The notes beneath the pieces were generated by a model. The model was given only the letters and a program-made list of their open reading frames with translations. It was not told the origin of the DNA and made no database searches. From Bispira polyomma (Eukaryota), in NCBI GenBank assembly GCA_965649765.1, contig OZ287752.1, positions 10,664,001 through 10,728,000 on the forward strand: 64,000 nt of DNA, read 5' to 3'. The position numbers and the translations under genes were made by a program. Of this stretch, positions 595-35,300 are shown one piece after another. How positions within the stretch are numbered: position 1 is the stretch's first letter; each line of letters starts with the position of its first letter.

Positions 595-3500
595 GTAGGG
601 GTTTTTTATGTCTGTTTTATGGACCATTAGTAAAACGATTGGTTTTACTTATGCCTAGAGAAAATAGTATAGATATATATGTGAAACAATTTGTCCATTG
701 TGACAAGTTCTAAGTCTCCTAATACATGTATGTGTATTTCCGACGAAAAGAATCTTAAAATTTTGGTCTCTATGGTTTTATTTTGTGTTACTGGCTGTCA
801 TGATTACAACTTCTAATTCTGCCTGTGTATATATTATGGAACTAGCACATATTACTAGTTGAAAGCTTTATGGAACTAGCAACTACAAGATTAGTAGTTA
901 ACTGTCTTATGAGAAAAGTTTCTTTTCTAATCATGTGGCTGTTGTCACTTCCAGTTATTCAGAAATTAAGATGCAGTAATTATTTTGAAAATGTACATTT
1001 TTAACATTATTTTTTGCAGACAATATTCCTGAAAATGAAACTAACTATCTACTCAATACAATATCCTGCTTTCGAAAACTGTCAAGGCATCATCATATTG
1101 TTGAAACATTTACCATAGAAAATGGTAAGTCAATGGTTAAATCTTTTTTGAACATTCTAGGGTTACAGGACTGTTTCTTCATTTTAAAATAAAGCTGTTC
1201 CATAATGGATGTGCCAAAGGCACTTAAATATCTATTAATTATGCATGTTGTATTGATAAAATAAAGTATTGATAATAAAATCAATGTTTTTCATATTTAT
1301 AATATACACGATACCTATCAATATCTTTTTAGTGTCAGCAAAACTGGTAATGAGGTTCTATGAAGCAGGTGATTTAAAACAGTTTCTTACACAGAAGACA
1401 AAAGCTGGTCATACTGTACAAGATGTTGATATCAATCTCTTGCATTTGGCTTTAACTACTGCGAAAGGACTTGCCTTTCTTGACCTAAAAAAGGTATTTG
1501 ATTGATACATTTCCTGAGGTTTCGTTAGGAGGGGATATAAATTTAGATTTTTTTTCTATCCTAGTCCTGCACTCCACAATCTATTCAGAACTTCAAGTAC
1601 TTAATTCATACGCTAACAGATTCTAAGGTCCTACAATCAAAGTATTTAAAAATCATATGTATGACTGTATTGACACAGTGGAATGTTTTCAAGCTGTTGC
1701 AGTTTCTTGTAAATGGCCATGGTCTTGTGTTTAGAGTTTTCCTAGTGATTAAAAGCCTCCTAGTTAGACCACCAATACAGGACTCGGTCTGTTGATGTAA
1801 CATGCCCAGTTTGACTCACAGTAATATGCCATAATTTTTTCTTGGGGATAACATCCTGCCACACCACTGCCTACTGTTGACGACCAATTGGCTATGCCTT
1901 TTGGTCTTGATTTATCAAATCTGATGTTATTCATTAGAAAATACCTAGCATCAGTAAGAAACATAAGAAACAATACAACATTCTTCTTGTGAAACTTTTT
2001 AAGGCTAACACAGTCTTTATGTCATGTTTGCATCTGTTTACATCTGAAACTTGTACGATGTTGTGTTTTTGTGTCTCAAACAGCCTGACATCCTACATTT
2101 CCAACTGTGTGCCGAGCATGTACTTGTTGACCACACACATTCTTGTAGGCTAACTGGGTTTGATTACAAACCACACGTCATACAGAGAGAAATGGAGGAA
2201 GAATATGAAGGGGTCAGTCTAACATTTAGTGTTAACCTGTATTATAAATACATGTTTGTATAATAGAACCTTAATTATCCAAATGTGTTGGGAGAGCAAG
2301 GAGGACAATGAAAGAGTAAGTGTGAGCTTAATAAAATACTAGACCACATTTGGACACAATATTTTTCATTGCATATCCTGTAGAGAAGTAGAAAAATTTA
2401 CTGAAACAAAATTTCATCAATTTACAATTCTGGAGAAGCTTATAACCTTAAGATTTTTGCTATTACCTATTTTCAGTTAAAATATGAGTGCAAGGTAAAT
2501 TGTCACTTAAAATTCATTACTTAAACCAGCCAAAACTAATTCCTAGCAAAACTTTCCACTTACCCAGTAGAATCCTTATCTAAACGTTTTGAAAATGAAT
2601 GAGTTTTGAGTTTGGATCACAGAAAGTTGATCAAATAGAAAGGGGCACTTCTGGTGACTGTCATTATTATGTATAGTATATATAATATAAAATATAGCAG
2701 TAGACTTGCTACATTGTTTGCAGAGCAGTAAATCTTGACCAACTACCCTGCTGTGATTTCCTCCACCTATAAACTGCCTGTTGTGTTATGATGATATAAG
2801 ATGTTTTGAAAGCAAATTTTTACTCCTAAAATAAATAATAAAAGGTTATAGTGTTATCCGATATTTTTTCTTTGTTGTAGTTCTATGGAGCTATAGAATG
2901 GAAGGCCCCAGAGGTGATATCAGACTGCAAAGCTCATTCTAAGTCTTCTGATGTCTGGGCTTTTGGGGTTTTGTTGTATGAGATCTATACAATGGGTAAG
3001 ATGACAATTTGTACAGTACGTATTCAAACAATACATTATAAAAAATCTAGAATTTGTCACCAATAAAACTCTGAGACCTAGTCTACTAGTCTTCTACTTG
3101 ATTTTGTCAAGTTTGTGTAGAAACTCTCTCTGTAATTAGAATTAATTCAAGCCATATTTCTTTATAACTGGAGCCAATTTTCTGGTCCCAACATTTAAAA
3201 GTACAAGTAGTAATACTACTAGTAAATAGTAGGCATAAGTAGAAGTTAGCCAGATGTAGAACCAAATCCTGTGTATATTAGACATTCGACAGTCTAATGT
3301 ATTTCATTCATGGTTTGCTAATTTCATTGTTTAGATTTGATGAAACTTTTCATTACTCTGGATAGGAGGTTTCTTTGATAATGGTGAACTTTGAGGGGAA
3401 GGGGTATCACGTCATAAATACTCAGTTGTTGAGGTGCTGTGATGAAATTACAGCAACCAATAGAAGATCAAACAACCGAGAAAGATCTATCACCAGGAGT

Positions 3501-4488
3501 ACTGCTGTTACTTGTTTGACCTCAGTTTGTAGAATACCTCTATAATGAATCAGTTGACCAGTTGATATCCTGATTGATAGGAGTTAGAACTTTTAGAAGT
3601 AAGAAGGAGTCGTACCATGGATTGCCTTAAAAGTCAAAAGAAGGATGTATATCTAATAAAGCAATACTGAATTTGTTCTATTGTTGCAGGAGGTACACCT
3701 TATGAAGGGATGCCAGAGTGTGATATTGAGACATATGTAAGAAGTGGACAAGTTCTGACCACACCTCCAAACTGTCCCCTGGAAATGTATGCAAACTAAA
3801 ATTGCTCATAAAGTCCATGCCCTTAATTTTTTTTTGAAACCCCAGTGGCAGGGTAAAGAACTTGGCAATGTCAACAAATAGTAATACTCAAGCCTTTCTC
3901 TAAAGTAATAATAGTTACTGGTGCTAGTTGGCTGTACCTGGGCAATCAAGCAAAGGTTAATTAGTTCTTTGAATATGATATAAAGGTAGATACATGTACT
4001 GCATATATATATGTTTAAATACTTATACATTGTAACCTATATTGGGCACATTTAAAGAGATATTACTGGTTTAAATTCAGTGTAAACAAAAGCAGTATTT
4101 GGCTATATGTTGCATCATTGCCTCCACATATATTTTTCCTTTTCTAAGTGCAGCATATAGTCTAGTTGATGTCATTTTGCATATTCCTCATGCTTTACTA
4201 TACCTTTTAATGTATTTTACAAACCACTTTTCTTAAATATTTCGAAAACACCTAACTTAGTGGCAAGTCATTCAACGCATTTATTCTATTTTATTTATCA
4301 TCTAGAATATGTTTTGTTCATATGACTAGTGTTCTTTTTTAGCAACCCTTTTGTCATTGTTCTGTTATTGTTGTATTTTTAAATACTATCACAGCTACAG
4401 CATGATGAAATCCTGCTGGACATATGCAGCTGACCAACGTCCAGGCTTTAGGAAATTGCTTGAACAACTGGAGAGCAGCAGAGTGTAA
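435..4488 (+). CDS. Tyrosine-kinase-family (RTK-like) pseudokinase, 3' part; exons 435-594, 1020-1124, 1333-1493, 2084-2212, 2881-2995, 3690-3786, 4395-4488
   Basis: All introns are GT-AG with compatible phases. The spliced product contains [59 protein letters not shown] and CW...QRP, ending at TAA 4486-4488. Upstream exons were not identified. Confidence 0.9.
1020..1124 (+). CDS. Kinase exon (III-IV): [35 protein letters not shown]
   Basis: tttttgcag acceptor, gtaagt donor, phase 1-1, HxxIV motif. Confidence 0.88.
1333..1493 (+). CDS. Kinase exon (V-VIa): [19 protein letters not shown]...[12 protein letters not shown]
   Basis: tttttag acceptor, gtattt donor; GDLxxFL and AKGLAFL motifs. Confidence 0.88.
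2084..2212 (+). CDS. Kinase exon (VIb-VII, degenerate): [27 protein letters not shown]...
   Basis: aaacag acceptor, gtcagt donor, 129 nt phase 0-0; aligns by eye to the IHRDLAARNVLV...KIxDFG pattern. Confidence 0.85.
2881..2995 (+). CDS. Kinase exon (VIII-IX): [13 protein letters not shown]...[16 protein letters not shown]
   Basis: ttgtag acceptor, gtaaga donor; tyrosine-kinase WxAPE and SDVWxFG motifs. Confidence 0.93.
3690..3786 (+). CDS. Kinase exon (X): [32 protein letters not shown]
   Basis: ttgcag acceptor, gtatgc donor; GxxPY...PxxCP pattern. Confidence 0.92.
4395..4488 (+). CDS. Kinase terminal coding exon (XI): [31 protein letters not shown]
   Basis: acag acceptor, phase 2; CW and RPxF motifs; TAA stop. 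Confidence 0.92.
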
Positions 4489-5369
4489 AAATAGCTATTA
4501 CACTTCTTGTTTATTACCAAACTGTACATGCCCAGATCAAAGGCATGTTAGAATGGTATGATGGTATGGAATGATCTCGTAAACACATAAACTATGACAT
4601 TTGTTCAGTGATGAACAAGTCAATTATGACATTTGCTGTGATGTATCACGGTAGCAAAAATCAAAGACAGCTTAAATATATAAACATGAAGTGGTGAAGT
4701 CCAAACTAACGTAAAACTGTAATCAGGGATAAAGATAGGCTAGAGTGTCGATTAGTTACACATAATTTTTAGCGCAATAGTCTGTAATATTTACAGTGAG
4801 TTCTAGAAATGCGTGATTTCCTGAAAATTTAAAAGGTAAAGATTGAAATTATGCCTACATTATTTTAAGTAAAGCAATTTGACTTGTTCTTGGGGCGATT
4901 TCTAGCTTTCTATCTCCTCCAATTTCTTCGATGTTCCACCATTCTTAAACAAGATGTGTTAATAGACTAAAAGTTAACAGTAAATGTGTACAAGTAGCTC
5001 TAATATTTCATGTGTAAGAATCTTATGATGTAGGTTAATTTTTATTATCTCAGTGATTATTGAAGACTCCTTTTTAAGTATGCTTAAAGGTGTATCTTGT
5101 TTGCATAGACAGTTTCAAATAGATGAGATTTCTTTTTCCCTCTTAGAATTGGTAATATTTTATTTTTTTCTGAAAAAAAAAATATTATTAAAGTCGCTAC
5201 CATCTTAGTAGACTCCTTAAGTGTGCCTTAAACATTTAGCTATTTTGCATCGACAGATTCAAAAGGGTAAGATTTATTTTCCCCAAAGTGAAAGAAGCTT
5301 AGTTATGTTGAGAAAAATATTCAAGAATGTATGGACTATGACTGAATTAAAGTGTCAATTTGATTGTAC

Positions 5370-5888: not shown

Positions 5889-8186
5889 CAGGGTTGGCAG
5901 TTTCTTCTAAAGTGGAAGTTTCTGTCTGGAAGAAATAGGTTTCTTCTGGTCCAGAAGAAATACCAATGTTCCATTCTTTCGCCCAAAGTGGAAGAAATAC
6001 CTCAAAAAGAAATTTTTGTAAAAATATGGGTTCTCACTTGGAATTTAACTGGAATGTAATACAGAATTTACTAATGGACTAAAACTAAAATTTAAAAAAC
6101 CCCTAGGTCTTGTGTTTTTTTCCTGTTTATTAAGTTCCAAGCCCATGCTATAAATCGTAAAGCCAAAAAGTATAATATTTGTTACTTTAAGATTAAACCT
6201 AAAGTATATGTATTATGTAGAGCCAAACACAAATTACAACCTATCTTAGCCTATATGAACTAAAAATGTAATGCTCTATTTTAAGGTGAAAAGATTAATA
6301 ATTCCCTCATTATAATTGGCAAGTAGCCATGTTGGCAACATTTATTTGTGGTTTCTATTTTAAATAAAAGTCTATTACTTCAACATTTTGTCAAGTAAGC
6401 CATCTTATCCATTGTAGTTAAATGCTTAAAAGTTAACGGTTATAAATAGCACCCCAGTAATTAGTTCATATTCAAATGAACACTTGTTTAACTGTATATT
6501 TCCCAAAATTAACTGATTTTTTAATGCAAAATTCTTCAGAATTTCCAGTTTCTTATATTTCTTCCAGTTTCTTTCACTTATCACTTATGGTTCCAGTTAT
6601 GGCGGCATCTCATCGAAAATTAAAATTTTTTAACAAATCTAGTTTGTTATACCCACGTTTTGGCTTTTGTGTTACTCAAAATTATCCTCATATGTTAGCA
6701 AACAAAAAGTTTTGATAGTAAATGCTTAATCTTAGTACAATATGTTCTTTTTTATAGTTGGGGTTATACTGAAAACCATTGCCTATTATCGTTCCTTATA
6801 CTATATTGTCTTTCATTTTTTTGTGCTTTGTACACCTTTTTGTACCATAACGCAATATATTTTTTTTACTCTTTGTTGTTCACTTTTTGTGCTTGGTAGG
6901 CCTTTTTGTACCTTCCTGCAATTTTTTACTCCTTGTTTCTTTCCACATCACCTTGTTTACACTTTTACCTTTGTACATTATTGTTTTTCACTTCTCCCCT
7001 TACAATATGTTTGCTATTAGGGCTGCCATCTTGTACCTATCCTTCCTTCTGTTTTGCTACCGCAAAACCTCCAAACTATTTGATACATTGTCAATGCAAT
7101 TACACCTGGAAGACATTAATTTGTCTTGCCATCTGGTTCTATACTTCTCTTCATACTGTTAATTTCGATCTAAATTTTGCCCAGTCAATTACCTACCAAT
7201 GTCAAAAACATTCATACTTATTACGATCTTACTGGCGAGTGATATCGTGAGTAACCCTGGCCCAATTCAGTTCGGATTTTAAAATGCCCGCTCATTGCGG
7301 AATAAAGGTCCTGTCATAGCCAATTTGATTAACTCATCCTCCATAGATATATTTGGCATCACGGAAACACATATCAGGAGTTATGATACTCCATTATTCC
7401 TCTCTGACCTTACTCCAGCTGACTTTCAGCTATTCCATACCCCTCGTGTAGGAAAACAGGGTAGGGTGGGATTCTTTTATTAAGAAGAACTATGAATGTC
7501 AGTTAGTTGCTACACCTAGTTTTACATCTTTAGAACTCATCCTTGTCTCTGTTCACTGGAAAAACCATTGTTTAAATTTTGCAACAGTTTATTGGCTCAC
7601 ATTTCACTAAATTTTTCGAAGAATTCATGTCTTTTGTTGGGTTTACTTCCTTATTACCCTCTCCTACTATATACTGTCATGATTTCAATATCCTCATGGA
7701 CTCCACATCAATTTTCTCACATTAATCCTGCACTTAAGTCACTCCACTGGCTCCCAATAAAATATTGTGTTGCTTTTAAAACTGCAACAATTGTATACAC
7801 ATTTCTAAATTCTAGATTACCCACCTTTTTAGCCCACATCTATCCAAATATACATGCTGAGTCAGGACTAGGTGCAGTAACCCTGACAAATTATGTCTTA
7901 ATATTCCCACTTTCGACCCTTGCATCTACAAATGCAAAGTACATTTCAATCCTTGCCTAGCTCATGATGGCCCCTTCATTTGGAACAGCCTGCTCATGTT
8001 TGCGTGGCTCAAACTTTCTCCTCTTTCAGGAGTAAGCTGAAGGCTTACCTTTTAAAACAGGCTTTCCACCATTTTTGATTTTTTTGATTAATGCTTAGGT
8101 TTGTCGCGCCTTAAGATTAAGCGTTTTAAAAATACGACTAGATTATCTGAAAGAAAAATCTTTCTTCCGGAAGAAATCCAACCCTA
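5889..8186. mobile_element. hAT-like non-autonomous DNA transposon carrying a nested LINE relic
   Basis: Termini cagggttgg..tttcttc / gaagaaatccaacccta; 8-bp flanks ctccgttt (5881-5888) and ctctgttt (8187-8194). Confidence 0.65.
7020..8146 (+). mobile_element. L2/CR1-group LINE relic, internally deleted (APE endonuclease joined to the ORF2 C-terminus)
   Basis: NARSLRNK, GITETH and DFNI endonuclease motifs, then HINPALKSLHWLPI, WNSL, FRSKLKAYL and a 3' tail ending tagatta; stops and frameshifts present; 5' boundary approximate. Confidence 0.88.
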
Positions 8187-17250: not shown

Positions 17251-17315
17251 TCAGTCTACCGACACTTCTTCTACAGCCTCGCATTTAGGGAGGTTCGTGT
17301 GCTGCGTCTCTGGAC
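17251..17315 (-). CDS. NDRG-like terminal exon H: GPETQHTNLPKCEAVEEVSVD*
   Basis: tttttctag phase-1 acceptor, GC-richer open frame to TGA at 17251-17253. Confidence 0.65.
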
Positions 17316-20300
17316 CTAGAAAAATTTGAAATTTGCATTGTAAGTAGAATTTTTTTAAATTAAAATACTTACCTCGTCCTAACATGACCATCAACTATAT
17401 AGCAAGTGTTAGGACGAGGTAAGTCTATCTTTATGCAAATAACATATACAATGCACAACTTCTACATTTGGATGAAATCTTTAATGATTTTGATTAGCTG
17501 TCTAAATTCGACAGTTTTCTTCCATCAATCATGCCAAAAGAATAGTGTAACATGTACCTGATTTAAAATACAACTTGAATTTTTATTGAGAAAGGTATTA
17601 TTAAAAGGTTATAGAAGCCCCCATAAAAAGAAGGTTAAAACTAACAAATTTAGGAGACTCAAGGCTATTTAAGGCTTTCAGACATGACAAGCTTGAGTCG
17701 CGGATTCTGGGTGGTTCAAAAGTAAATTATAACATAAAACTTCTATACTTGGTTAAAATCATAACAATTTGATAGCCTTCCAAATTTGATATATTTCACT
17801 TTAATCTAAGTCGACTTCAAGTATAATGAGCTAGCTATATTCCTTGCCATATAGACAGACCTATAATGATCTGGGCTGACCTGATGGAACACAGATGTCC
17901 TTTGATTAAGCATTCTTCACATTTTGGAGAAACTTTAAACATATGTTCAAAATGATAGCCGAAATTGAAAGATTGTGCATACTATTTATTGTATTATTGT
18001 ATATGTTTTTAACGTGCTCTATTTATGCGAAGCAACAGGCGAATCAATCAACCTATCATCTGCCCTACAACAAAGCCTGGGTCGTCCTCAGTAGGCAATG
18101 GCCTGTTGTCATCTTGCCCAAGAGACGTTATCCCAACAATAAACCTTGAGACATTAGCAAGAGTCAAACTGGGGATCTTGCGAACAACAGACCAACTCCC
18201 CCACTGGGAGTCGAACTGGGGACTTTCTGGTCACCAGACTAACTCCCAAACCACTAGGCCATGAGAGATGGCGACTGCTAGGAATGATAAGAAATGTAAA
18301 CGGTAAAATATCAAAAATATCAGCCAATCAGAATCAAGGTAATTAGATTGTACCCTGTGCTCCTACCTCAGGGATGGAGTACTTAGCAAAGATAAATCCC
18401 ACACCCGCCAGCGTTACGAAAAATGATTTTGCACAGTGCAGTAGGAGATATACCAAATGTGCCAATTATGCAGATGACATAATCAAACAACATCCGAGAG
18501 GACGATACCACACTTGACCTAGTTTTACTCCTCAAAGGTCAAATTTGAATGCAAAGTTTTTTGGGCCAAACTCTTGTAATTCTCTTAAGACGACATGCTT
18601 TTCAACCTTGTATGTTGGAAAGATCATCATATCAAGCTTAACATCAGCAAAACTAACTCCAATCCTGGCCTCTTTAGCATTTATCGCCAGATCCAGAATA
18701 AGCCGATCTGCATGAACATAATGACCTTGTAATATACCAATCCTAGCCCAATGAGTTTTACATATCCAGATGTAAATACATGTTCATCAACACACTGGAC
18801 TTGATATTTAATACACAGACCACAGATTTGCTCAATAAGTTCTATGATGCATAACATTTGAATGGGTTACTATTTTCATCTTCACCTCAATGATATTATG
18901 CCCCAAACTTAACTTCACAATTAAAGATTCTTGTGTTCAATACTTATAATTTAAAATTTTGCACATTTATTTAAATTTTAAAATTTCATAAATTAACTCT
19001 TCTTTTTTTTAAACATTTTCTTTTCTTTCAGGTTTCAACTTGATACAATCTACATTGAAAACAATTTCATTGCTTTATTTATGCAAACTTGTGTATAACT
19101 TTGCTTTGGCTAATTCTACACTGTTGATGAAACATATTATTCCAATTTTACATTATTTAAAAAAAAAAACACCAATACCTACGCATTTTTCCAAACAAAA
19201 CAAAACCTGCTTCATGCCCTCAAATAGCGAACATTCTACTCAATCTAATATGTATAAATTAAAAACAATCAATATCTGTCATCAATCCTTGGCTCTGACT
19301 AAAGAAAAAATACACTTTAAAACTAAAGCTTTTAAACAGATACACGATTAACTACTGGGGGTAAATAACTAAATAACAAAAAAAAAAAGTCAGGAACATG
19401 CTAAAACACAAACCATTGCCGTTGGCATCACCTCCGGACAGACTGCGAGTGCGTGCATACTTGGGTTGGTCTGCTTCCTCCATGGAGAGAGTCCTGATAC
19501 GCGGCATTGCCCGCTTCACATGGGCCATGGGGATGGAGGAGACTGTACATAGAGAGACGACAGGAAGTGGGGGGGGTCAGAATCACACACACACACCCAG
19601 CCAGACAGACACACAGACACACACACACATAGCCACACATGTACACAGGGTATAACATAAAGTGGGGGCGGTAGTCAAAAAACAAATTGGTCGATTTTTT
19701 CCATAAACTCACACCTACTAAATTTGTTTGACAGAATAAATATAGTCCCATTTAGTTTCATTCAAAACATTACCCCTTGTAATATTGTTACTACTGATAT
19801 GGGTGGATTACAAAGACTGTTTAATGGATGTACATATAAAACATTTTTATTTGTGGTTTGAAACAATCGACCCAGTTGACGATACCGACCCACCATTTGT
19901 TAACCTGTGTACAACAGGTAGAGAAACTATATTATCCAAAGTTCAACGATATACAGTACACATCACTGCAATGTTCTCATATCCACAGAATTTGATTCTA
20001 ATTATGGCTAAACTTTTTGGGAAATACAAACTTGGTTCCATTCATAGACAAATTTGACCTGTACTGGTTCTATGACCACCATCCGCCCACCAATTTTTGA
20101 TTTTTTGGAAAAAAGCTTAGGTTTTGTCGTTCCTTAGAATTCTTGTACGAAGATTAAGCGCTATAAAAGAATGATCAGATTAGATTAGATTCTAGTTACA
20201 GAGAATCAACCATGGTTTTAAAATGTTCAAATTTGATTTAACTTTTTTTTAAGATGTGCCTCAAATATATGTATGTAAAATGCCTCTTCCTATTTTATCA

Positions 20301-23300
20301 ATTGTTTTGCATGATGGATGTTCTACTGGATAATTGGGGCAATTTCCCGTTTTTTTTTTCCTTTGGATAATAGAGATTAATCTATTGTATATAATATATA
20401 TACATGTCTATATAAAAAGCCAGGCCCACAACTCTACAAATTGACAATAGTAAAAGCACACAAAAACATTATCCACAAAAATAATTATTAATTGCAACTC
20501 CAGACAGCTAGCCACAAAAGTAGTACGTGATGTGTGGTTTCGCTTAAATTGAAATCACCAGATTGATGTTTTAACTAGGAATTTAGTGAAATGAGCCTAA
20601 GATGAATGTCAATTGAAAATTTCAACAAATAGATCTAATATCCGAGTATGTGGAGACAAAATTACAGGCATTAAAAATATATTGGTGTTTTGGCAAAACC
20701 ACAAGCAGTGAACTTTTGGTGCATCAAGTCTTGAGGTCTAAATTCACTATATAATATTGGTGCTTTTGAAATTATGAAAAGATGAACAATTTAGCATGAT
20801 GATAATTTTGTTAAATTTTTACATTAAAACTTTAATCTCATTCATTGAAATTTTCTTTATAAATTATTCCTAGTTCCATTACTAGGCCAATATGTATACA
20901 ACACCAATACTTGACGTGAATACAAGCCTCTAACGTTAATATACACTAACAAAAGACACACAAGTATATAATCATATACACATATGTATGCCATAAGTAC
21001 TGAATCAACACATGATCTAACTCAACTAAAATATAAAAACAAAATCAATTTAAAACACACACAACATCTTTATTGCATTGTAGCTTGATGCAGCAAGATT
21101 CCAGTGAATCTAAGGCAGTTGTCATGGTAACAAACCTTATCTGGAGGTAATGGTTGTCATGGTAATAAAACTTATCTTGAGATAACAGTTGTCATGGTAA
21201 CAAACCTTTTCTGGAGGTAATGGTTGTCATGGTAACAAACCCTATCTAAAGATTATGGTTGTCATGGTAATAAAACCTATCTGGAGATAAAAGTTGTCAT
21301 GGCAATAATCCCTATCTGGAGATAATGCTTGTTAGGGTAATAAAACCTAAAAAACTGGAGAAAACAGTTGTCATGGTAATAAACCCTATCTGAATATAAT
21401 GGTTGTCATGGTAACAAACCTTATCTGTAATAAACACTGTTTTTTGTATGGTACTACGTAAATTTAGATGAGTAAGTCAAAGTGTTTTTAGCTGTTTGTG
21501 ATTTTGACACTGACAAGAGGACATCACTATTAATTACTGTCCAGAAAGTAATGCTAGAATCACTGCTTCAAACTAGATGCAGTTTTTGGCCTCTAAGGTA
21601 GTATGCTACCATTTTTTCTATCCTACAGATTTTCAAAAAATTTTTAGCTATAAGAGATCAAATAATAGACAAACCAAAAATTAAAAAAAAGTACACGTTA
21701 CCGCGCTATTTTTCAAATTACATGAGGATCAAAATGATATGTTCCAATTCCACTTCCCCTATTGAAAATACAGGGAAATAGAGCTTCTAAGACCATGACT
21801 TAAGATAAAATGTACAATAAAAGAAGTTTTAACCCACAGATTTTGTGTATTTTTTTTTACATTTGCTATGATGTATGTATTAATAAATCATAATGAAAAA
21901 AATAGGGGTCACCAGACTCATTTTCATTTCACAAGCCACAATAGTAGGTAATTTTACTAGTGAAATCTGAAAAATCCCTTGGTCAGTCATGTAGTATTTA
22001 CATTGAAGTTACAATTCTTGACTAGGCATAATTACAATCATAGGAGTATGGATCACCACTGTATGTTTTCTGTTGGTGTTTAATCCAAATAACATTTAAT
22101 TAAGTATAAACCTAAATTTAATTTTTGGCGCCATATTTACACACCAGGAACAACGTTCAAATACTTTATGATATCAAGTTCAACCAATAGGTCATGTCAG
22201 TCTAATTTGCACTCAACAAAATGGCGATTTTTTATTAATAACTCAGAAATTACTGAAGATAAAAACTACATGAAAATAAGGTGAGAAAGCTTATTTTATT
22301 GCGATTCCTGCGCTGTTCGTTGCATCAAAATCTGTTGATAAACGGCTAAGATATTGAAGCTTAAATACAAGTACCCAGCTTTCATAAGCAGGACGGTAGT
22401 ACAGGTCGGCAGTACAAATACTGGGGAATCCCTGTAATGTTTGTGCCAGTCGCTAGGTGGCGCAAAGAATAGCCGCGAACTATGTTAAATCCAATAAAGA
22501 GTCCAACTGGGAAATTATGTATTACTACTACTATTATTTAAGTACTCTAGTGGTAAACTCAAGAAGGCTTTCACTCCATAAATGTACTGGAAAGTATTCA
22601 TCTTATATTTTATTTTAATATCGTAATGCCCCCAGCCCTCCCCCCCCCCCACCCCAAAACTCAAAACTTAACCAGACAATAGTGACTGGGCTCTTGTAGA
22701 TTTCAGTACAAACTTTTTCCTAGCTTTATATAGGATATTGAGGGTGGTCTCTACCGGGAAAGCGTGGGTTGTACTGAGAGAGTTTGGTGTATCTTTTTCT
22801 GGCAATACTCTTATTGACGTATTTTTTTTTTTTCACTGTACTAAACTAGAAAGGGAACTGGAGGTGGGCGTTGTTGAGGGAGGGGTGTAGCCCTGCAGCA
22901 TTGTATTTCTCAATTGACGCATCTGAAGGAATCATTTGCTCCCTAATTTGGGAGCCTAAAAACTGGACAAGGAAGCCGTTAGTGTTGGCAAATAGCTTAA
23001 CAAATTTCATTGTCTGCAGTCTAGTTTTTTTCTCATTACTATGTATATTGTTGTGAGTGTCAGAGGGGGAAGGGAATCTGATACTTGTCAAACCTGTCAA
23101 ATTTTTTTCAGAAACTAAAGTAAAGGAAATGAAGACCAAATCATACATAATAGTATTTTTCTCAAAAATTTGCTATGGGTTTTACAGTGTTGCAAATTTT
23201 AGCTATGCGGCTCCCCAAAAAATCTGTAGTGACTAGTAAATAATGGGATCTACTGTAGTGGTATTACCTAACCTCCACCAGGGAGGTGATGTTTACGACT

Positions 23301-26300
23301 GTGTGTCTGTTGGTTTGTTTGTTTGTCACCAGGATTACACAAACTCTCTACCAAACCGATTTAAATGGAATTTTGCTAAAGTGATAAAGCATGGACCAAA
23401 GAAGAGGTAATAAAATTGCGGACTGGATCTGGGTAAAACGAATGTTTTCTTTTCACTTTGAGGAAGCCATGACAGAGGTATATGTCCTGGTGGAATATCT
23501 CTGATTACTTTTCATACTTACATCTCATTTGATTTTGACTTAAAACAGTGCTATCCTTTTCTTTGTTAGAGGTTGATGTAGTGATAGCAAATTGTTCAAT
23601 GAGATTGAAAAAAATCAAATAATCAGACAACAGAAGTTCTGATAATAGAGGTCATACTGTAATAGTATGCTCCCTAAAAAATCTCTGTCCCATGTCAATA
23701 GTTGGACGACCTTCATGCATTACAAAGGGGGCCGCGGTCGCCTAGTGGTTAGCAAGCACTGCGCTTCACAATCACTGGTCTCTCACCTCTGGGCGGCGTG
23801 AGTTCGAATCCCGTCGATGTCTATGTGGGAAAGATGGTAGTTCCTTACTGTGGGCTGCTGGTTTCTCTGCAGAAACTTGACCGACTGTATGCAGTGTTTC
23901 CTCCAGCGTTTTCAACTACCCATCCCAATATAACCTACTAAAAGGTACTAGAGTGGACGTTAAATATCCAAATTCAAATTCAAGTATGCTCACTAAAAAA
24001 TCTGTCCCATGTCAACAGTTGGAAGAGTCCTTCATGCATTACAAAACTTTTACAGACATGTACAATATATAAAACAAATATGATTATTATGCATCGCAAA
24101 AAAACAACACGTTTCACCACCACATAACTGAATATATATGTTATATATAATATATCCTGCAATAAAAATCTATCTGTCAAAAAGCCCAAAAACCTACAAA
24201 AAAAATGTAATATCCAAGGCAATCAAAATATGGAGCAACTTGCAACAAACACAGATTTACAAACTGAAATAATGCCAAGCACTAAAAATATCTTTTATTT
24301 AATCCAAGATACACAGTGCCACCGTTTCATCATGATTTCAAGTTTAGATTAAAAATTAACGAGACAGATTTTCCATTTTTCACCCATTACTACTTCTATT
24401 TCACAAGTAGGCCTTCAAAAAGTTAATTTTTTTACAGTATACCATTGATGCTCTGATAACCTATTTTGTTGTGCTTTAGAACAAAGGTTCTCTCTAGCAA
24501 ATCAAATCAAACATCTGGCCATATTTCAGTTTGTAAACGACAAATAAATCAGAAAATATGTATCGATACAAAAAACAAAAATAATTCCCACATAATGTTA
24601 AGCGTATCGGTATATAATAGTATAACCTCTGTTATCTGAACGTGTTGGGGGAGGGGGGGTGAGGGGAGAGCAAGTTTCGTTTGGAGATAACAGAAATATT
24701 AAACAAAATAGAATTGGCATTTTTGTAAAATGTATATTTGGGAAAGTAAAAAGGAGGTTCATAAAATCAAATATACATATAATAGAAGTTTGTATAATAA
24801 AAGTTCAGATAATAGAGGTTCTACTATACTCATAGCCCCACCGATATGCACACAACAGAATACCACACACACACACACCACACCACACATGATCATCAAA
24901 AACCTCTGGATTCCCACACACTGCAGCACATAAAAAAACGACTCTATGCCCTTGGACTCTATAGATGTCGCCACAGTCAAGAGTTACCATGGTAACACCC
25001 CGCCATGTAACCCAAGGCGACACACACACTATAGTACCTATAAGGTGGGGGTACCTGAGCTTCCCCCCGAGAGGGTTCTTGCTTTTCTAATTCGCTTTGG
25101 GAGGTCGTACTCTTCCATACTGGCTGCCCGGGCGTAGGGCATACGCGAGACGTTTGGCATGGGGAGGGAGGAGACTAAAAAGTCAACAACAGACACACAC
25201 CCATTAACAGCAGGTGCTCTGGTGATATGCATGTGTATATACAGTCCATTGAATGTTTAACCCTACAAAACTGTCAAGATTTAATTGATATTTTATACAG
25301 AAAGTCAGAAATATACACCCATTAAGAGCAGGTGCTCTGGTGATATATATATTGTATATAGAGTCCACTGAATGTTTATCACTATAAAAACTGTAAAGAT
25401 TTGATTGATATTTCATGTTTCTCCCTACAAAAATGTCAAGATTTGTATTATATTTTATACAGAAATATACACCCATTAACAACAGGTGCTCTGGTAATAT
25501 GAATGAATATGAATGAATGTTTATCGTTCGAAAACTATTAGATTTGATTTTGACTCAACGCATGAATGTTTATCCTTCTAAAACTGTTAGATTAGATTTT
25601 GTTCAATAATTACTTGCCATTGCCATGTGTTGGAGCCATATCCAACTCCCTCACCAATGAAGAGAAACGTTTTTTGCTACCTTAAGCATATCAGTGAATT
25701 TTAGGTATGTGTGTAGTGGACAATGGTCAGTCCTCCCTTGAGGGTTAAGGGAGAACCCCAAAGTAGGTCACCTTTTATATTTTTTTCGTTGGCCGTCCGT
25801 GATATAGCTATTGTCGGGAAATGTTAGGTGCAATTTTCGCAATAGAAACACCCATTAGCAGCAGGTGTTCTGGTAATATGCATACTGTATATTATACAGT
25901 CCGTTTATATCCCTATAAAATTGTTCAGATTTGATTGATATTCCATTCAGGAAGCCATAATTACAAACCCAATTGAAACAGGTGCTCTGGCGATACACAC
26001 ACTGTATACACAGTCCACTGAATGTTTTTTCCCATAAAAATTGTTCAGATTTGATTGATATTCCAGACAGAAATTCATAAATACAGACCCATTCCTAGCA
26101 GGTGCCCTGGGGTGATAATAGCAAGATGATTCGTTTTGTGTGTGATAAGTGCCGTGTCAGATTTGTTAAGGATTCCTCGGTGGCTACTTTAGTAAACGGT
26201 AAACTATATCCCGCAGAATCCCTAGTGTCTCAATCTACACGTCTACTCAATATTAAGATTAAGGAAGGGACTTGGGTATTTTAAATGATTTCTTTTAAAT

Positions 26301-29300
26301 AATGCATTTACCATTTATCAAAAATAGCCATTAATAATGCTATTAGTAACAGGTGTTTGGGTCTTATGTATAGATATACTTTACAGTCTATATACTGTGT
26401 GAAATAAGCATACATGATCTCCCTTCTAATTGGGTCCACTCCAAGATTTAATGGATTCTTCCTTGACGTAATTGCACCCTTCCCTCAACTCAACTTCATG
26501 TAAATCGGTAAAGTAGTTTTTGCGTACCCCTGATGGGAGGCCTTGATAAGTATTAGTGGTAACACACTTGCCTCCTACCCCTGCAGTCGTGGGTTTGAAT
26601 CTCGATCCAGGAGCATGTAAGTGGGAAAGTTGGCAGTAGACTTACAATGGTTTTGCAAGAGCAGAAAACCTTTGACACCAACTACCCCAGGGCCCTTATT
26701 CACGAAAGGACTTAGCCAGGTCTTAGGCTTAAATCTAGCACAAAAGTATACTGATTTAAGCCTAAAACCTGGCTAAGTCCCTCCATGAATACGGCCCCAT
26801 GGTATGATTTCCTCCAGTAATAAACTGCCACATCATGATATTACACAAGACACGTTAAAATCGACGTTAACCCCAAAACTAAGTGTTTATTCCTGTGGCA
26901 GGTCTTTCTCTGGTGGTACAAAGTGTTGACAGTTCATCTATTGTTTGTATCCCCTGTGTTATATAAGTGCCATTCTATTCCAGGGACCTGTATTCACAAA
27001 CAGTCTTATTCTTAACTCAGTCTTAAGCTTAACATTTATGTCTAGAATATTTAAGGCTGCCTACTGTTAGTCTTGACTGTTAAGTGCAAACTTGACATTA
27101 ACCAAGGATATTTTCTTACTGTCACTGAGACTAAGGCCACCTTTTAGGCCAAAATGTTCACCTTTTAGGCCAAAATAAAAGACAACATGTATAATGTTGA
27201 ACTTAAGACTAAGACAGTTTTTGAGAATATGGCCCATGTTGCTTACAACCCCAAAGTTTGCTTATTTCCACACATAGAGGAAGTCAAACTTGCTTAATAA
27301 TAATAATATTTGAAACATTTATAGAGCGCCAAATTGATGAGAACATCCTCTAAGGCGCTGGTATCCAAAAAGGGAAGCTCCAGGGACAAAAGGTTGTTAC
27401 CAGAAAGCATCCACCAAGGGAAGGGTGACTAAGGTAGGGGGATAGGCCACAGTCTGAAAGGTAAGTTTTCAGATAGCTTCTGAAACCAGTGATTTTATCC
27501 TGGGATCTGACAGTGTGTGGGAGTTTGTTCCATTCAACAGGAGCCGCAACAGCAAAGCAGCGCCTGCTGATTTTACTATTTGGTTGGATTGTTGGTTGAG
27601 TTTGATAGATTGCTTCACCAAACTTCTATACAAAGGATTGTGGGGCAGTATCCAACAGTGTCATTTCATATAGTGTTGTATAGTATTTATTAAAATAACC
27701 AGTTCCATTTATGGGCTATTCTATTTCTTACACAAGGTGTAAAAAAGCAGGAGCGCTTGGCATAAAAATTTTGAGTTGATGTTTAAAAAAACCTTAAAAG
27801 ACCCTGTGGTGTATTGCAATTGTTTGTGTTAACCCGATAAACTGGATTCATTTACAAGATTTATTTTACTAGAGATATATTCTGTATTTTTATGACTCCA
27901 GGTATGTGTCTCAATAAATGTGTTTATTTTTTTCAAAATTGCTTAGACTTATTCTCTATCCCATATAGATTCAGTTATGTGGTGGGGAGCTTGTTATTCT
28001 AATATACTATTTGTTTCATACTAAAGACACAGTAACAAACTGATATTTAATCAATCAAATAATTTTTATTCGTTTGCATTTTTGTTATATTATTTTAACT
28101 AATGGTTTTAGCTTGGGGGATGTTTTAAAGAACTATTCCAAAGTATTGATAAATGTACGACGCAGTATGCAATCTTTCCATCAATATATAGAAGTTTGTA
28201 ATATTCAGAATTTTTTTTGGATTTCTTTTGCGCTGTCAATTTAGAAGTGTTTATCTAGTGTAATATATTTAAACATTTTAGCTTGAAAAAAATTCCATTA
28301 TTTTCTACTGTACTCAAGATGAAAATCAATATAAAAAAAGTTCAACATCAATTTATCTAGCAGTTTTACTAGGTATACAGTGCCAATAAACTTTCTGGTT
28401 CTTTTTTGCTATGTAGCTGTAATTGATCAAAACATTAAAAGTCAAAAACTGTAGATTTACTAATGTAAACGGATTGAAATACATAAATATGTTAAAATAC
28501 AATCAGTGCACTTAACCATCACTTATGATTAGTGAAACAAATACATGAAAACAACAATTATGTGAGACATGTATGAACTTTAAGGGGCGGCTCTTTAGTC
28601 TACAGACTGTATAAATATAGTGTATAACACATTCTAAGTACATACAAATAAAGTGCTCATATTGTATGTGTGGGCATAGGATGACCAAACACGTCTCTTT
28701 ACAATATCACACACAGCAAAAAGATGGACTTTAGGGGTGGCATTTACAATAGATCTGAGTCTTAACTTCTATGTCCAAAAATATTTAAGACTGCCTACTG
28801 TTAGCCTTAGTGTTAAGAGGGAAGTGAAAACTACTAAACAAAGACATTTTTTTATCGTGTCACTGGGAGTAAGACCAAAATGTTAAACCTTTTTGAACAA
28901 AGACCAAATGCTAAGCTTAATGCTTAAGTTTAGACTAAGACCTTTTGTGACTACGTCCCCTGAAGATACATAATTTTCTCTACTTAAGCAGGATTTTTAA
29001 TTCTACTGATTCTATTTTTGAACAGAAATAAACATTTTAAAGTCAACACTATTACTTAATTTACATTTTGTGGAAAAACTGTGATTTCAAAGGTATTGAA
29101 TTGCATGATAAGCTTTCATAGAGTTGGACATAGTAAAGTTTTCAAATACATACATAAACATCCAAATATTTAACTTAGTTTACAAGCCTAAATTTTGAAT
29201 TTTCATTTTTACTTCAATACCAAGCTAATTCTTATATTTTTAAAGCTGTTTATACATGTATCAATCCAAATTTTAAAGATGTAAGAGAATGGGCTATGAG

Positions 29301-32300
29301 TATTAAGTCTTTGACTTAGTTTGTGTCCTTCATCTTGGTGTGTGTGTGCTTTAGTACTCACCTAAACCGAGTCCCTGAAGGAAATACTGGAAGCTCTCAA
29401 TGAACTTGTCTGCCTACAATAAAACACACATATTAGGTATAATTCTGTGAATAAGACATCAGTGATCAGTAACTACTTCATTTCTTGGAAAAGTACTTCA
29501 GTAATATCACTCAGTTAACTGTTGTAATTTCAGTCCTCTTTCAGTACATTAATACAGCCATTAATACAACTTTAAAAATGGACTATGATTTTTACAACTT
29601 TGTCCCTGATGTTGCGCTTAAAAGATGTCTGGCATTATTTAGGCGCATTAAAAATCTCTCATATAACATCATTATATCAAAAGTAGCCGACTGTGTTTAT
29701 GCACTGAAAAGATGGGGGATTAATACATTAACCAGGGGCTATCAGCAACCATACCTTTTCCCCCAGTAAATCAGAACTCATAGCTACCCTCCAGCACATT
29801 AGCACCCGCACCATTTACACCAGCACATTATCACTCCGATACATTTGCACCCATACATTTTTTCACCAGCACATTAGCACTCTAGCACATTAGCACCCTA
29901 GTACATTAGCACTCTAGTACATTAGCACTCCAGTATAATAACACTCTCAAACATTAACACTCTAAAACATTAGCACTCTAGTACATTAGCACTCTAGTAC
30001 ATTAGCACCCACACTTTTTCCTCCAGTACATTAGCACTCTAGTAAATTAGCACACATACCTTTTCCTCCAATACATTGTCACTCTAGTACATTAGCACTC
30101 TAGTAAATTAGCACTCTAGTACATTAGCACTCCAGTACATCAGCACCCCTACCTTTTCCTCCAGTACATTAGCACTCTAGTACATTAGCACCCACACTTT
30201 TTCCTCCAGTACATTAGCACTCTAGTACATTAGCACACATACCTTTTCCTCCAATACATTGTCACTCTAGTACATTAGCATCCTACCTTTTCCTTCAGTA
30301 TATTAGCACTCTAATACATTAACACCACTACCTTTTCCTCCAATACATTAGCACTCTAGTACTAGCAGTCTAGTAGATCAGTACCCTACCTTTTCCTCTA
30401 GTACATTAGCACAGCCTGCCACCTGCAGTAGTTCTATCTTCCCTTTGTCAATGGCATGTTTCATCATATGTTCGTGCAGGCTGTGGGTGGTCTTGTGAAA
30501 CACAGACTTGCTGCCAGTCACAAACAGCACAGGGCATCTGCCAAAACATAAATACAGGTGTACTCAGCCATACTCAAAATGTACTGTACGTGTGCTCAAA
30601 ATGTACTGTAGATGTACTTAAAATGTACTGTATGTGTGCTCAAAATGTACTGTAGATGTACTCAAAATGTACTTTACAATCAAAATGTACTGAATGTGTA
30701 TTCAGTAAGTACTCGGTCTGTACCTTTTGTGTACTCAGCTTCACTCCGGGTGCATTAACATGTACTATCTACCTACTTCGAGTGTACTCAAAATTGTATT
30801 TAAAGTGTATCTAGTATGTACTTAATGTGTATTTAAGAGTGCACTCAGTGTGTACTTAAGTTGTGGTCTTTTCACAACACTCTTTTACACAATACATTTG
30901 CAGCATGTCTTTATTTATTACAGGATTAAATCAGTATAATAAGAATGTAGACTGTAACTTACTTCAGTTTCCTGATGCTATCTGCCACATTGCTTCTCCT
31001 GTAGAAACAAAACACATTCCATTAGAACTAAAACTCTATACTGTGCACAGTATCTCCATACATCCAGAATACCCTGGTAAACTTAATGGGCTAATTACAA
31101 GTATCAAATGCTTTAAAATTCGATTCACACTGTATAATTTTAAAATTTCAGTAACAAAATCTTGAAAAGGATCCTAGGTTTAACTTTCAGGGACAGAGTT
31201 TAAAATTTAACTAAGTTCAAAGTAATTGATCAATTCAATGAAGTGGTAGAACTAGGAAATTTAATTCCAGCTAAAATATCAATGCATACAGTATAAGAGC
31301 ATATGTAAAAAAATACGTAATAGAGTAAATGGAAAATGTGTTTATCTCTACCACAAATCAATTAGCCTAATAGACTTTGATAATAATGCAACCTTCAGTG
31401 ACAGTCATGCGGCAATAGATATACAGAATTCCTGTGACCAAAGTCACAAACATCCTTGGATTGAGGCCAATGTTCTTCAATTGGTTTTATTACCCTTACA
31501 AGGCAATGTGGTGGTACAATGGAATTAACACCTGTGTCAAGGAGATTAGGTTTTCACCTGTGTCCATTGATTTCTTTGTTTAAGTGTCACAAGGATTACG
31601 AGGTGTTTTGTTATGGGTGTGTAATGTCACTTGTGTTGTGTCCCGTGTTGTTCACTGCTAAAGGAAATCAGAACAGGGCAGTTCATCAATGGTTTTTTGC
31701 ACTGTTAAACATGGTGGTCTCTGTGGCCGAGCAGTTAGGGTGTCGGACTTTGGATTTTAGAGATCTTAAGAGCCCAGGTTTGATCCTCACTGCAGGCCTG
31801 AAAATTGTACCCTTGTGACACGGTGTTTTACACAGTTGTACCTCTCAACCCAGGACTATAAATGGGTACCTAGGTACCCGCTAATGGAGTTTAGTCTTTG
31901 AGCGCCGCATGTGGCAGCATGGCTAGTATGATTCCTGAGGAAGCTGAGACTGAACAACGGGTTGATGAGTGGAAGAGCCCAGGCTTGGGGTGTAAACTGT
32001 AAAGTCAGCTGAGACCTCAATAGAGGTGATATCAGATTATAAGTCACACACACTACACACACACATTTACAGAAGCCAAATTTCCCATAAACACATCAGG
32101 GCCGAGATTCAAACTCACAATGGCAGAGGTGGGAGGCCAGTATGTTGCCCTATACACCTGCGAGGGAACCCATCAGAATAAACATTAAAACTATTTAACC
32201 GATTTACATAAAATTCAGTTGAAGCATCAGGCATGGGCCAAGTAAGAACTAGACCTAGTGCATCGGAGAACCGATGCATATTTGTATCCACCAGAAAGAC

Positions 32301-35300
32301 AAAGCACCCTAGGTAGCAAGCACCTTAGGTAGCAAGCACCCTAGCTAGCACCCAAGCAAGGAGCCTATGATTTCCTATAGGGCATTTATGCTAAAGCCTT
32401 AAATCGCACAAGTGGGTTTCACATTGCAAACATGTGGGAGATAGGCACTTTAAAGTTTGGACTACCCGTTTAACCTTGTACAAGGGATCCAAGGTCAAAT
32501 CTGACCACAGCAAAAGATTAGCAGCCCATGATTTCCTACAGGTCGGTTTCACATTCCAAACCTGTACGACCAATAATAAGCGAAATATAGGCACTTTTAA
32601 GTTTGACCAAGACTGACCTTGAACGAGGGGCCAAAGGTCAAATCGGACCAGATCAAAAGATTTCCAGGCCTTGATTTTGTACAGGTTGGTTTCACATTTG
32701 AAACCTGTAGGACCAATAATAAGCGAGATATAGGCACTTTTAAGTTTGGCTATCCGCATTTGACCTTGAACAAAGAGCCCAAGGTCAAATCTGAGTACAT
32801 CAAAAGATTCCCAGCCCATGATTTTCTATATGTTGGTTTGGCACTCCAAACCTCTGGGACCAATAATAAGTGAGATATAGGGACTTTTAAGTTTGACCAT
32901 AAGCATTCGACCTTGAACGAGGGGTCCAAGCTCAAATCGGATTACATTAAAAGATTCCTAGCCCATGATTTCCTATAGGTTGGTTTCATATCAAATAAAA
33001 TGATCAAATAGATTTTTTTAATTTGTGATGTAATCAGTTGTTGCAAAAAAAGTCATTTGTGACGTCAAGACGGTAGGTCAAAGTATTCTCCCTCTGTATA
33101 GTTGAATTAGTCGCCATCGGTGGTGAAGGTGTTAATAAATATTTTTTAAAGAGCTGAAATGGAAAGCCAGATTAAGTAACTTTTTTAGTTAAATATTTTT
33201 TTTGGGTGGGAGGGGAGGTATTTGGCACCATGGGTGTCTTTGGGGAGTTATATAAAAGGGTTGTGTCCTTGCCGTTTCATAACTGGGTTATGTAGTTTGA
33301 CTCCACTAACGGTAACACACAATATCAAACCTCCCTGCCTTATGACAGTGACTTAGATTAGATTAGTTAAGGTTTAACATCGCTTTCCACACGAGGAAGT
33401 TAATCAGGGGTATTTGAACAAGGTTTTGTATGCCGGGCTTGGACCTGGATCATCAGAGGCTCACCTAGAACGAGTTTTTGACTACAATGAATTGCTGTAC
33501 TAAACAACTCTGTCTCTCACCATGTGAACAGTCAGTTAATCAAACGCATTGTCAAGGACAGAAAACTTGGTGTAGGGGTTCGCCAGGGTTTGTATTGATC
33601 ATCATTCTCCGAGGCCAGTCAAGGCTAAGTAATAGGCTTGTCAAGAGTTTCAGCATTGTGATCGACTGGCATTTAGGACCTAGGAATGGCTTTCACAAAG
33701 GGACTAAGCCAAGACTTTGTCTGACATGTGACATACTTTTGTGCTAGATGTAGGACGATGTCCATTATGTGAATACTTCCCCTGGGCCCGTATTCACCAA
33801 CAGACTTAGCTAAAGTGTAAGACTTAAATCTAACACAAAAGCATACTAGATTTAAACCTAAGACTTCGCTAAGTCTGTTGATGAACACTGACCTCTGGAG
33901 TTTTAGAGTAAACATTCCACCACCTCCCAACACACACTCACTTGAGGAAAGCCTCCACAAACTTCTTGAGGTTTTTAGGGTTGACTTTAGTTCTGAGCGT
34001 GGTCTGGTAGTTTTCTATCACCTTCTTCAGGGAGTCCTGATCTTGTACACTGGAAAACTGGAAAACAAAGAAATTGGTATAGAAAGAACCTTTATTAGCT
34101 AGAAACTAGCACAGTCAGAACCTCCGTTATATGAATATATTGGGGGAAGTCCTGACCTTGTACACTGGAAAACACAGAAACTGGTACAGTAAGAATCTGT
34201 ATTATCTGAAGCTGGTGGGGGGAGTAAGCTTTGTTCAGATAACAGAACATTGATCAATAATCGATAGGAGTTTTAGTATAAAACAAGAGGAAAATATAAC
34301 TTTGGAACAGTGAAAATATGTGTAGACAAACATGGAATATTTGGTAAAAAAAAAAAAACAATCTAAATTTGGGACACTGAAAATGTATTTGTAAAATTGG
34401 ATATTTGGACAATGAAAGTTCAGATAATAGAGGTTCTACTCTACCTTATCCACAGTAGATATACAGTACAGGCTTTAACTATAATATTTAACTTTACACA
34501 TTTAACTGTAACGTTCATCATATAAAAAACAGGAAAACCTTTATTAGCCGAACTTCTATTATCTGAGTATTTGAGTTTATAAACTCTAAATTCACTCTCC
34601 AAAATTTAAGTCCTCATATTGGTTTGAACAAAAATAGCTCATCTACTTGATTAACCTTCTATTATCCTAAACAAAATCTTTGATAATAGAAGTTCAATTG
34701 TACACCTTGTATATATTTGGTAAGGCAAGACGTTTACAACAGACTACAAATAGGTGTGAAAAAAATATTATTGATTTATTAAATTAGACAAAAAAAACAA
34801 ACAAAGTTTGGCTGGTATTACTTACAGGTTTAAACAAGAAAGTATTTATTGGGAAAATTTAATTAAAAACGTATCTTGTATAGATATGGATTAAATCTAT
34901 TACATGTATTTATTACATGGTTATATATATATAAGTGTACATAGTTGTGGATTGTTCTTCAAGTGTTGATCAAGTTGGGTAGTAAGCACAGGAAGAATAA
35001 ATTTTACAGGTATCTCTACACTTTTGACAACACTTTCTCTTTGGATATATCAAGTCATTAAAAAAAAGTCTAATCATTAATCAAACCTACTAATCATATT
35101 CTACTAGAATAATATTTTTGAACTGCTGTTAATTGAAAAATGATTAATATTAATAAAGAAAGCAAAAGAAACCATAAAAAACATACACATAAACAGCAAA
35201 GATCACAAAGTTACCAGGAAATATTCTGGTAACATTAATATTCCACTATCACCTATACTAGATGTAGCACACAAGAAACACTACCAATGTCTTGTTAACT

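Follow-up and report, generated by a model that had tools for sequence, protein, structure and literature searches.

Genes are well known to carry duplicated tail exons that are used alternatively. In Drosophila, the genes pip, PGRP-LC and CG42235 are reported to carry homologous variable exons at their 3' ends, one of which enters each transcript, and competing RNA structures are reported for them (PMC9013439, excerpted text). The internal mutually exclusive exons of Hatje et al. are neighbors that resemble each other, share their phase and differ little in length, and the definition, as excerpted, separates them from terminal exons, which are chosen by cleavage and polyadenylation (PMC5740500). 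Here we describe a pair of paralogous tail exons, G1 and G2, in an NDRG-like gene of Bispira polyomma. The gene is encoded on the minus strand of OZ287752.1 (contig C5 of the 1.04-Gb genome assembly GCA_965649765.1), and the stretch of 64,000 nt analyzed here (positions 10,664,001 to 10,728,000) is referred to as the window. Like the Drosophila exons, G1 and G2 are homologous and 3' variable, and one would be used per transcript. They are also neighboring, similar in sequence and length and equal in phase, as in the class of Hatje et al., whereas frame incompatibility and steric interference, which are named for that class in the excerpt (PMC5740500), do not apply to them. The mechanism is unsurprising in this respect; what the pair predicts is that an uncharacterized NDRG-like protein has a second isoform, one that is easy to overlook. 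No publication on this exon pair was found in the literature searched, with subscription journals and supplements lying outside it.

The closest described protein family is NDRG (PF03096; human NDRG1-3; PDB 6L4G, 6ZMM and 2XMQ), with which the product of the window gene has in common the domain, a Gly in place of the nucleophile and a tail that follows the fold and is basic and rich in Ser/Thr. It differs from that family in its GEGAG elbow, its SMEExDxP-type tail and its two paralogous tail exons in place of in-line repeats. In the excerpted text of PMC12272907, NDRG proteins are stated to lack the catalytic triad, and the tail of human NDRG1 is stated to be phosphorylated by SGK1.

We propose that exon F, the last exon of the folded domain, splices either to G1 or to G2, so that the two resulting proteins would share the folded core and differ in their tails, which are predicted to be disordered. 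G1 would serve as an alternative last exon that closes with a TAG of its own, and the transcript would be cleaved and polyadenylated within the G1-G2 intron; when G1 is skipped, the transcript would continue to G2 and then to a candidate last exon, H. We give this reading a probability of about 0.6. The features concerned, in window positions, are as follows.

29362 to 29413, minus strand: exon F, final exon of the folded domain, with the phase-1 donor TAG/GTGAGT
25055 to 25174, minus strand: tail exon G1 up to a possible donor CAG/GTACCC; 120 nt, phase 1-1, without RxRxx[ST], Tyr in SMEEYD
25038 to 25054, minus strand: run-on of G1 (GTPTL) to its own TAG at 25040-25038
24909 to 24959, minus strand: F', a decayed copy of exon F, with an acceptor one base off the frame required by exon E and no GT at the place of the F donor
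19414 to 19542, minus strand: tail exon G2; 129 nt, phase 1-1, donor ATG/GTTTGT, two RxRxxS, Ala in SMEEAD
17251 to 17315, minus strand: candidate last exon H, with the acceptor TTTTCTAG, in frame, ending in TGA, with ATTAAA 220 nt further on

The first base of G1 is 25174, preceded by TTTTTAG, and that of G2 is 19542, preceded by GTACAG, a spacing of 5,632 nt; both acceptors are in phase 1, the phase of the exon F donor at 29362. The shared landmarks are VSSLPM and VSSIPM, SMEEYDLPK and SMEEADQPK, and RTLSGG and RSLSGG in G1 and G2, respectively. An initial annotation had described two duplicated tail exons about 5.6 kb apart, with phase-1 acceptors and the motifs VSS[L/I]PM, SMEExDxPK and R[T/S]LSGG, and had offered G1 either a TAG of its own or a donor at AG/gtaccc. 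All of these elements were found, on the minus strand, and both candidate exits of G1 are present (25040-25038 and 25055, respectively). A hidden Markov model of the tail matched the window at two places and no more. Of 19 positions, 12-14 are pyrimidines in the acceptors of G1, G2 and H, and 11-15 in those of seven core exons. Against the U1 consensus, the possible donor of G1 and four of the seven core donors agree at 6 of 9 positions, and the G2 donor agrees at 5 of 9. The G2 donor (19414) is in frame with H, to which G2 likely splices. All six exon paths tested are in frame, including the tandem inclusion of G1 and G2 and the skipping of both, and because every path is in frame, exclusivity would come from the choice of the 3' end and not from the reading frame. 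In two DNA sequencing runs (X1 and X2) of a single study, possibly the source of the assembly itself, contigs crossed G1, and G2 with its acceptor, at approximately 14-20x, which is single-copy depth, with zero differences from the window; hence neither exon looks like an assembly artefact. The three public runs compared with the window behaved as genomic DNA, and the joints inspected in them included no exon junction.

The two exons are 54-58% identical at the protein level, and their local alignment score of 84 was reached by none of 20,000 shuffles (shuffle maximum 58). Over 36 aligned codons, the proportion of synonymous differences (pS) was 0.85, which is saturated, and that of nonsynonymous differences (pN) was 0.32. 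In simulations of neutral evolution over 0.75 substitutions per site, none of 5,000 runs kept the exon open with an identity of 54% or more; on shorter neutral branches of 0.5 and 0.3, 0.6% and 22% of the runs passed. The old duplication under selection that had been suggested for the pair agrees with both the codon comparison and the simulation at 0.75. Judged from their codons, both tail copies are long diverged and have been retained by selection.

Twin tails were also observed in two other worms. In Dimorphilus gyrociliatus, the proteins CAD5118212.1 and CAD5118213.1 (DgyrCDS6935 and DgyrCDS6936, below Dg6935 and Dg6936) have identical cores up to the F/G boundary and then continue into two paralogous tails, which give reciprocal best scores with G1 and G2. 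Unlike the pair here, both of these tails terminate at a stop of their own shortly after SGG, and both retain two RxRxxS motifs. The annotation of that genome is described as 14,203 loci yielding 17,409 peptides, with splice variants based on transcript assembly (PMC7854359, excerpted text), so that the two proteins are likely isoforms of one locus. One of the Dimorphilus tails was also found directly behind the core in a 1,295-nt Logan contig (protein P0023). In a metagenome scan, which gave 42 loci, two contigs (L029 and L031) shared 111 identical bases end to start, the sole terminal overlap among the 42, and together give the layout E-F-Ga(stop)-943 nt-Gb(stop), with AATAAA 11 nt past the Ga stop. 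Two tail motifs in one protein were seen in none of 237 fetched homologues, most of them from species of unknown gene structure. The two pairs and this absence of tandem tails give indirect support to the earlier prediction of at least two C-terminal isoforms.

Among 26 genomic contigs, 24 had only one tail exon, running to a stop, and 23 of these 24 had the same clitellate-like tail. The longest stretch that the 24 contigs cover past the stop is 5,329 nt, short of the 5.5 kb that separate G1 and G2, so a second tail copy could lie farther on. Annotated isoforms of Lingula (P0125, X3), Tubulanus (P0130, X4) and oyster (P0168) change to short tails at the F/G boundary. The short tail of Lingula (P0125), which begins with VSGIPM, resembles a shortened version of a paralogous tail exon. 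A profile built from both tails detected three proteins with tails that we take to be arthropod-like, and a further search with two-tail profiles returned 17 representatives, comprising 14 single tail pieces and three unrelated repeat proteins. The tail of P0001, the closest relative protein, is of the G2 type (score 134 against G2 and 86 against G1). A link of G2 to mollusc tails through its SMEEAD was considered and is not supported, as the top match of G2 is P0001, a member of the annelid clade.

The tails differ in the conserved basic kinase motifs of the family, and this difference is directly testable. RxRxx[ST] is the consensus of Akt/SGK, kinases of the AGC type. RxRxxS is present at the SME serine in 137 of 145 distinct tails, and G1 is among those without it. 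Two such motifs each occur in G2, in both Dimorphilus tails and in Ga and Gb, and none in G1. The variable position of SMEExD is Tyr in G1, as in 86 of the 145 tails, and Ala in G2, as in 57. The motif difference suggests that the G1 and G2 isoforms likely respond to different kinases. A switch of tails would change regulation, with one form carrying two RxRxxS motifs and the other lacking both and keeping a tyrosine that is missing from G2.

The initial annotation had left the pair as either mutually exclusive or alternative-terminal. Use of G1 as an alternative last exon is better supported than strict internal exclusion. In the relatives with a single copy, the tail exon runs to a stop, and in the two paired worms both copies do so. 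The match of G1 to Dg6935 continues past the possible donor and through the GTPT of the run-on. In 19 of 21 annelid-type tails, [ST]P follows within 10 residues of SG[GAS]; the two exceptions, P0001 and Dg6936, are both closer to G2 than to G1. Several observations weigh against G1 as a terminal exon or against two working tails. The G1-G2 intron of 5,495 nt has 11 poly(A)-like hexamers, about the AT-rich background, and the first of them is 734 nt past the G1 stop. F' starts only 78 nt past that stop, which suggests that G1 inherited no 3' untranslated region. The possible donor of G1 is a better U1 match than that of G2, so splicing from G1 to H would be feasible, and no homologue of H was found. 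The longer branch of G1 (0.85, vs 0.41 for G2) and its lost conserved arginines could reflect decay. Both tails of both relatives' pairs keep RxRxxS, and the motif difference between G1 and G2 is not common to them. Finally, the 111-nt overlap of L029 and L031 could be a graph branch.

The strongest alternative, which we nevertheless consider unlikely, is strict internal exclusion, in which F would splice to G1 or G2 and both would then splice to H, G1 by way of CAG/GTACCC. Its donor with 6 of 9 U1 matches and the in-frame G1-H junction speak for it, and a neighbor such as F' suits an intron more than a 3' untranslated region; whole F+G blocks may have been the first alternatives in such a scheme. 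However, [ST]P is kept in the run-on of G1, which past the donor still resembles the Dimorphilus tail, and each copy in both relatives ends at its own stop. There is also no enforcement by frame or steric interference, as both exons are multiples of three (120 and 129 nt) and lie 5.5 kb apart. Terminal and internal use of G1 could both occur.

We think it more doubtful still that G1 has recently become relaxed or dead and that F-G2-H is the sole product. G1 could have lost its function recently and still have its present sequence, as 22% of the simulated runs passed on a neutral branch of 0.3; its branch is the longer one, both RxRxxS motifs are gone, the neighboring F' is dead, and P0001 has a G2-type tail. 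On the other hand, the frame of G1 is open, its acceptor is intact, pN is far below pS, and SMEEYD.P and SGG are kept. Tandem inclusion (F-G1-G2-H) is very improbable: the path is in frame and would give a repeated phospho-tail resembling human NDRG1, in which the tail motif is reported to be repeated (PMC12272907, excerpted text), but none of the 237 homologues has two tail motifs and a stop follows each copy in both relatives. It can hardly be credited that the pair was produced by misassembly or belongs to the ends of two different genes, for although the partial duplicate F' implies that G2 once had an upstream exon of its own, DNA contigs of single-copy depth match both exons, the genome has one set of core exons, and the G1-G2 interval holds an F-like piece and no other core exon.

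F', which was absent from the initial annotation, bears on the origin of the pair. It is on the same strand as G1, and among 645,138 six-frame positions of genome DNA it is the best match to exon F besides F itself (12.7 bits with a profile, 38 with BLOSUM; no other match within 3 units). It aligns to F without gaps at 27 of 51 identical bases, with 9, 12 and 6 of 17 matches at the three codon positions as counted from the alignment, a pattern that hints at past coding constraint and is biased by the protein-level search. One F-like score of chance level, 11.2 in locus L050, is close to the 12.7 of F'; by score alone F' is not far above chance, and its position makes the relic likely real. Since F' lies just behind G1, the duplicated unit was likely F plus G, copied in tandem, after which the second F would have decayed and G2 would have come to rely on the first. 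Read in this way, the relic records how a twin-exon pair can begin as a two-exon block. No F relic was found between Ga and Gb, and the flanks of G1 and G2 gave no clear alignment beyond simple repeats. A splice from the G1 donor (25055) or from F to the AG of F' would give an F-like frame and a hydrophobic tail; its use looks unlikely.

Since this exon is duplicated in at least three worms, the gene is well suited for telling an old, retained duplication from repeated ones. G1 scored 91 against Dg6935 and 70 against Dg6936, and G2 scored 57 and 93, respectively; the scores within species are similar (84 for G1/G2 and 93 for the Dimorphilus pair). A tail tree of 40 columns did not resolve the grouping. 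Approximately unbiased tests rejected none of G1+G2 (p 0.25), G1+Dimorphilus type 1 (0.43), G2+Dg6936 (0.48) and the Dimorphilus pair (0.28), and a quartet analysis gave one site for a shared and one for an independent origin. Ga and Gb scored 129 against each other and at most 114 against any other tail, with a synonymous divergence (dS) of 1.39. These values suggest a separate or homogenized pair and lean to a duplication of its own in that worm. From the tail comparisons, shared and independent origins of the twin tails appear about equally likely.

In PGRP-LC, the proximal exon is described as having a 5' splice site that needs masking (PMC9013439, excerpted text). No local masking was found at the G1 donor, where the structure z score was 0.56 and the unpaired fraction about 0.5, like that of other donors. 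In contrast to the competing structures reported for the Drosophila genes in the excerpt, the sole candidate helix here involves one intronic tract, which is a weak candidate.

22624 to 22662, minus strand: G-rich intronic tract, predicted to pair with the G1 or the G2 acceptor

The predicted pairing energies of this tract (22662-22624) across the G1 and G2 acceptors were -45.2 and -37.1 kcal/mol, and the other acceptors of the gene gave -9 to -25. In the sum of the two energies, the tract came first of 110 G-rich tracts (111 minus the antisense of G1), with a lead of just 1.8 kcal/mol; such tracts occur about once per 5.8 kb. Shuffling its non-G letters reached the sum in 82 of 2,000 trials (p ~0.04, post hoc), and no equivalent helix was found in the Ga/Gb interval (-18.7 and -21.2 kcal/mol). 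On these models, a masking helix would be a weak lead. The fullest version of events would be an old annelid switch, shared with Dimorphilus and derived from a two-exon block, which here toggles between an Akt/SGK-type tail and a site-free tail while a G-rich intronic strand masks either acceptor AG. Taken as a whole, we regard it as improbable.

The exons upstream of G1 and G2 place the gene in its family. Besides exon F, the following core exons were mapped, and further 5' exons are situated outside the window.

59871 to 59931, minus strand: core exon A, with the FGEGAGAN elbow motif and Gly at the nucleophile position
55716 to 55802, minus strand: core exon B, mapped, in frame
47918 to 47995, minus strand: core exon C, mapped, in frame
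33942 to 34057, minus strand: core exon D, mapped, in frame; a second AG lies 8 nt into the exon (34049-34057, TTCCAG repeated), and only the outer AG keeps the frame
30963 to 30998, minus strand: 36-nt core exon in the D-E interval, the top phase-correct candidate (score 27; runner-up elsewhere 0), in frame
30390 to 30537, minus strand: core exon E, mapped

Joined through F, these exons give an open core of 192 residues, which is 79% identical to P0001 over the 192 residues compared. P0001 carries PF03096 (Ndr), and its structural matches are human NDRG1-3 (E 7.7e-35 against NDRG3). A direct Pfam search of the genome gave no match at these core exons, short exons being missed. The top named matches of the core were annelid proteins and 'ZK1073.1-like' records of molluscs, nemerteans and brachiopods. 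In a quick core tree without canonical NDRG, the window gene paired with P0001 (support 97) inside an annelid clade (support 96) that includes Dimorphilus, siboglinids, Paralvinella and Helobdella, with Owenia outside. The GEGAG elbow has no catalytic nucleophile, and G130, G132, A133 and G134 are invariant across 44 homologues. A separate gene of the canonical NDRG type, with TYHDIG and GVGAG motifs, is on C4 at approximately 14.06-14.08 Mb (L001 and L002), and a genome search found a single set of core exons of the NDRG-like gene. The earlier assignment to the NDRG family was therefore correct, and the gene belongs more precisely to a ZK1073.1-type, NDRG-like subfamily. No functional test of this subfamily in annelids was found in the literature searched. 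We presume that fly CG2082 is the orthologue. That fly gene is described as uncharacterized (PMC9751288, excerpted text). In the AlphaFold model of P0001, the domain ends near residue 311, most of it with a confidence score (pLDDT) above 90; for the tail, which the G exon encodes, pLDDT is 48-59, so exchanging G1 for G2 would likely alter a predicted-disordered tail and leave the fold unchanged.

Local duplication of exon ends is recurrent in this gene. The 3' end of the core exon encoding YTFPSM is repeated in tandem in the following intron, in about nine copies at a spacing of approximately 60 nt (L004, C5 ~10,733,100-10,733,800), and short repeated copies of the 3' end of exon E are present in the intron after it (window 30015-30243).

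The window also contains other repeats and a putative neighboring gene.

25188 to 26116, strand not assigned: array of six diverged copies, each unit about 120 nt, immediately 5' of the G1 acceptor and ending at the G1 branch-point region

A minisatellite with a 35-nt unit lies in the G1-G2 intron (21083-21471). Fragments at approximately 7160-7480 (plus strand) and 27350-27660 (minus strand) resemble ends of a retrotransposon endonuclease or reverse transcriptase, as we assume from their motifs. At approximately 2050-4490, putative exons on the plus strand face the 3' end of the NDRG-like gene, and from their motifs we take them to encode the C-terminal lobe of a tyrosine-kinase-like protein.

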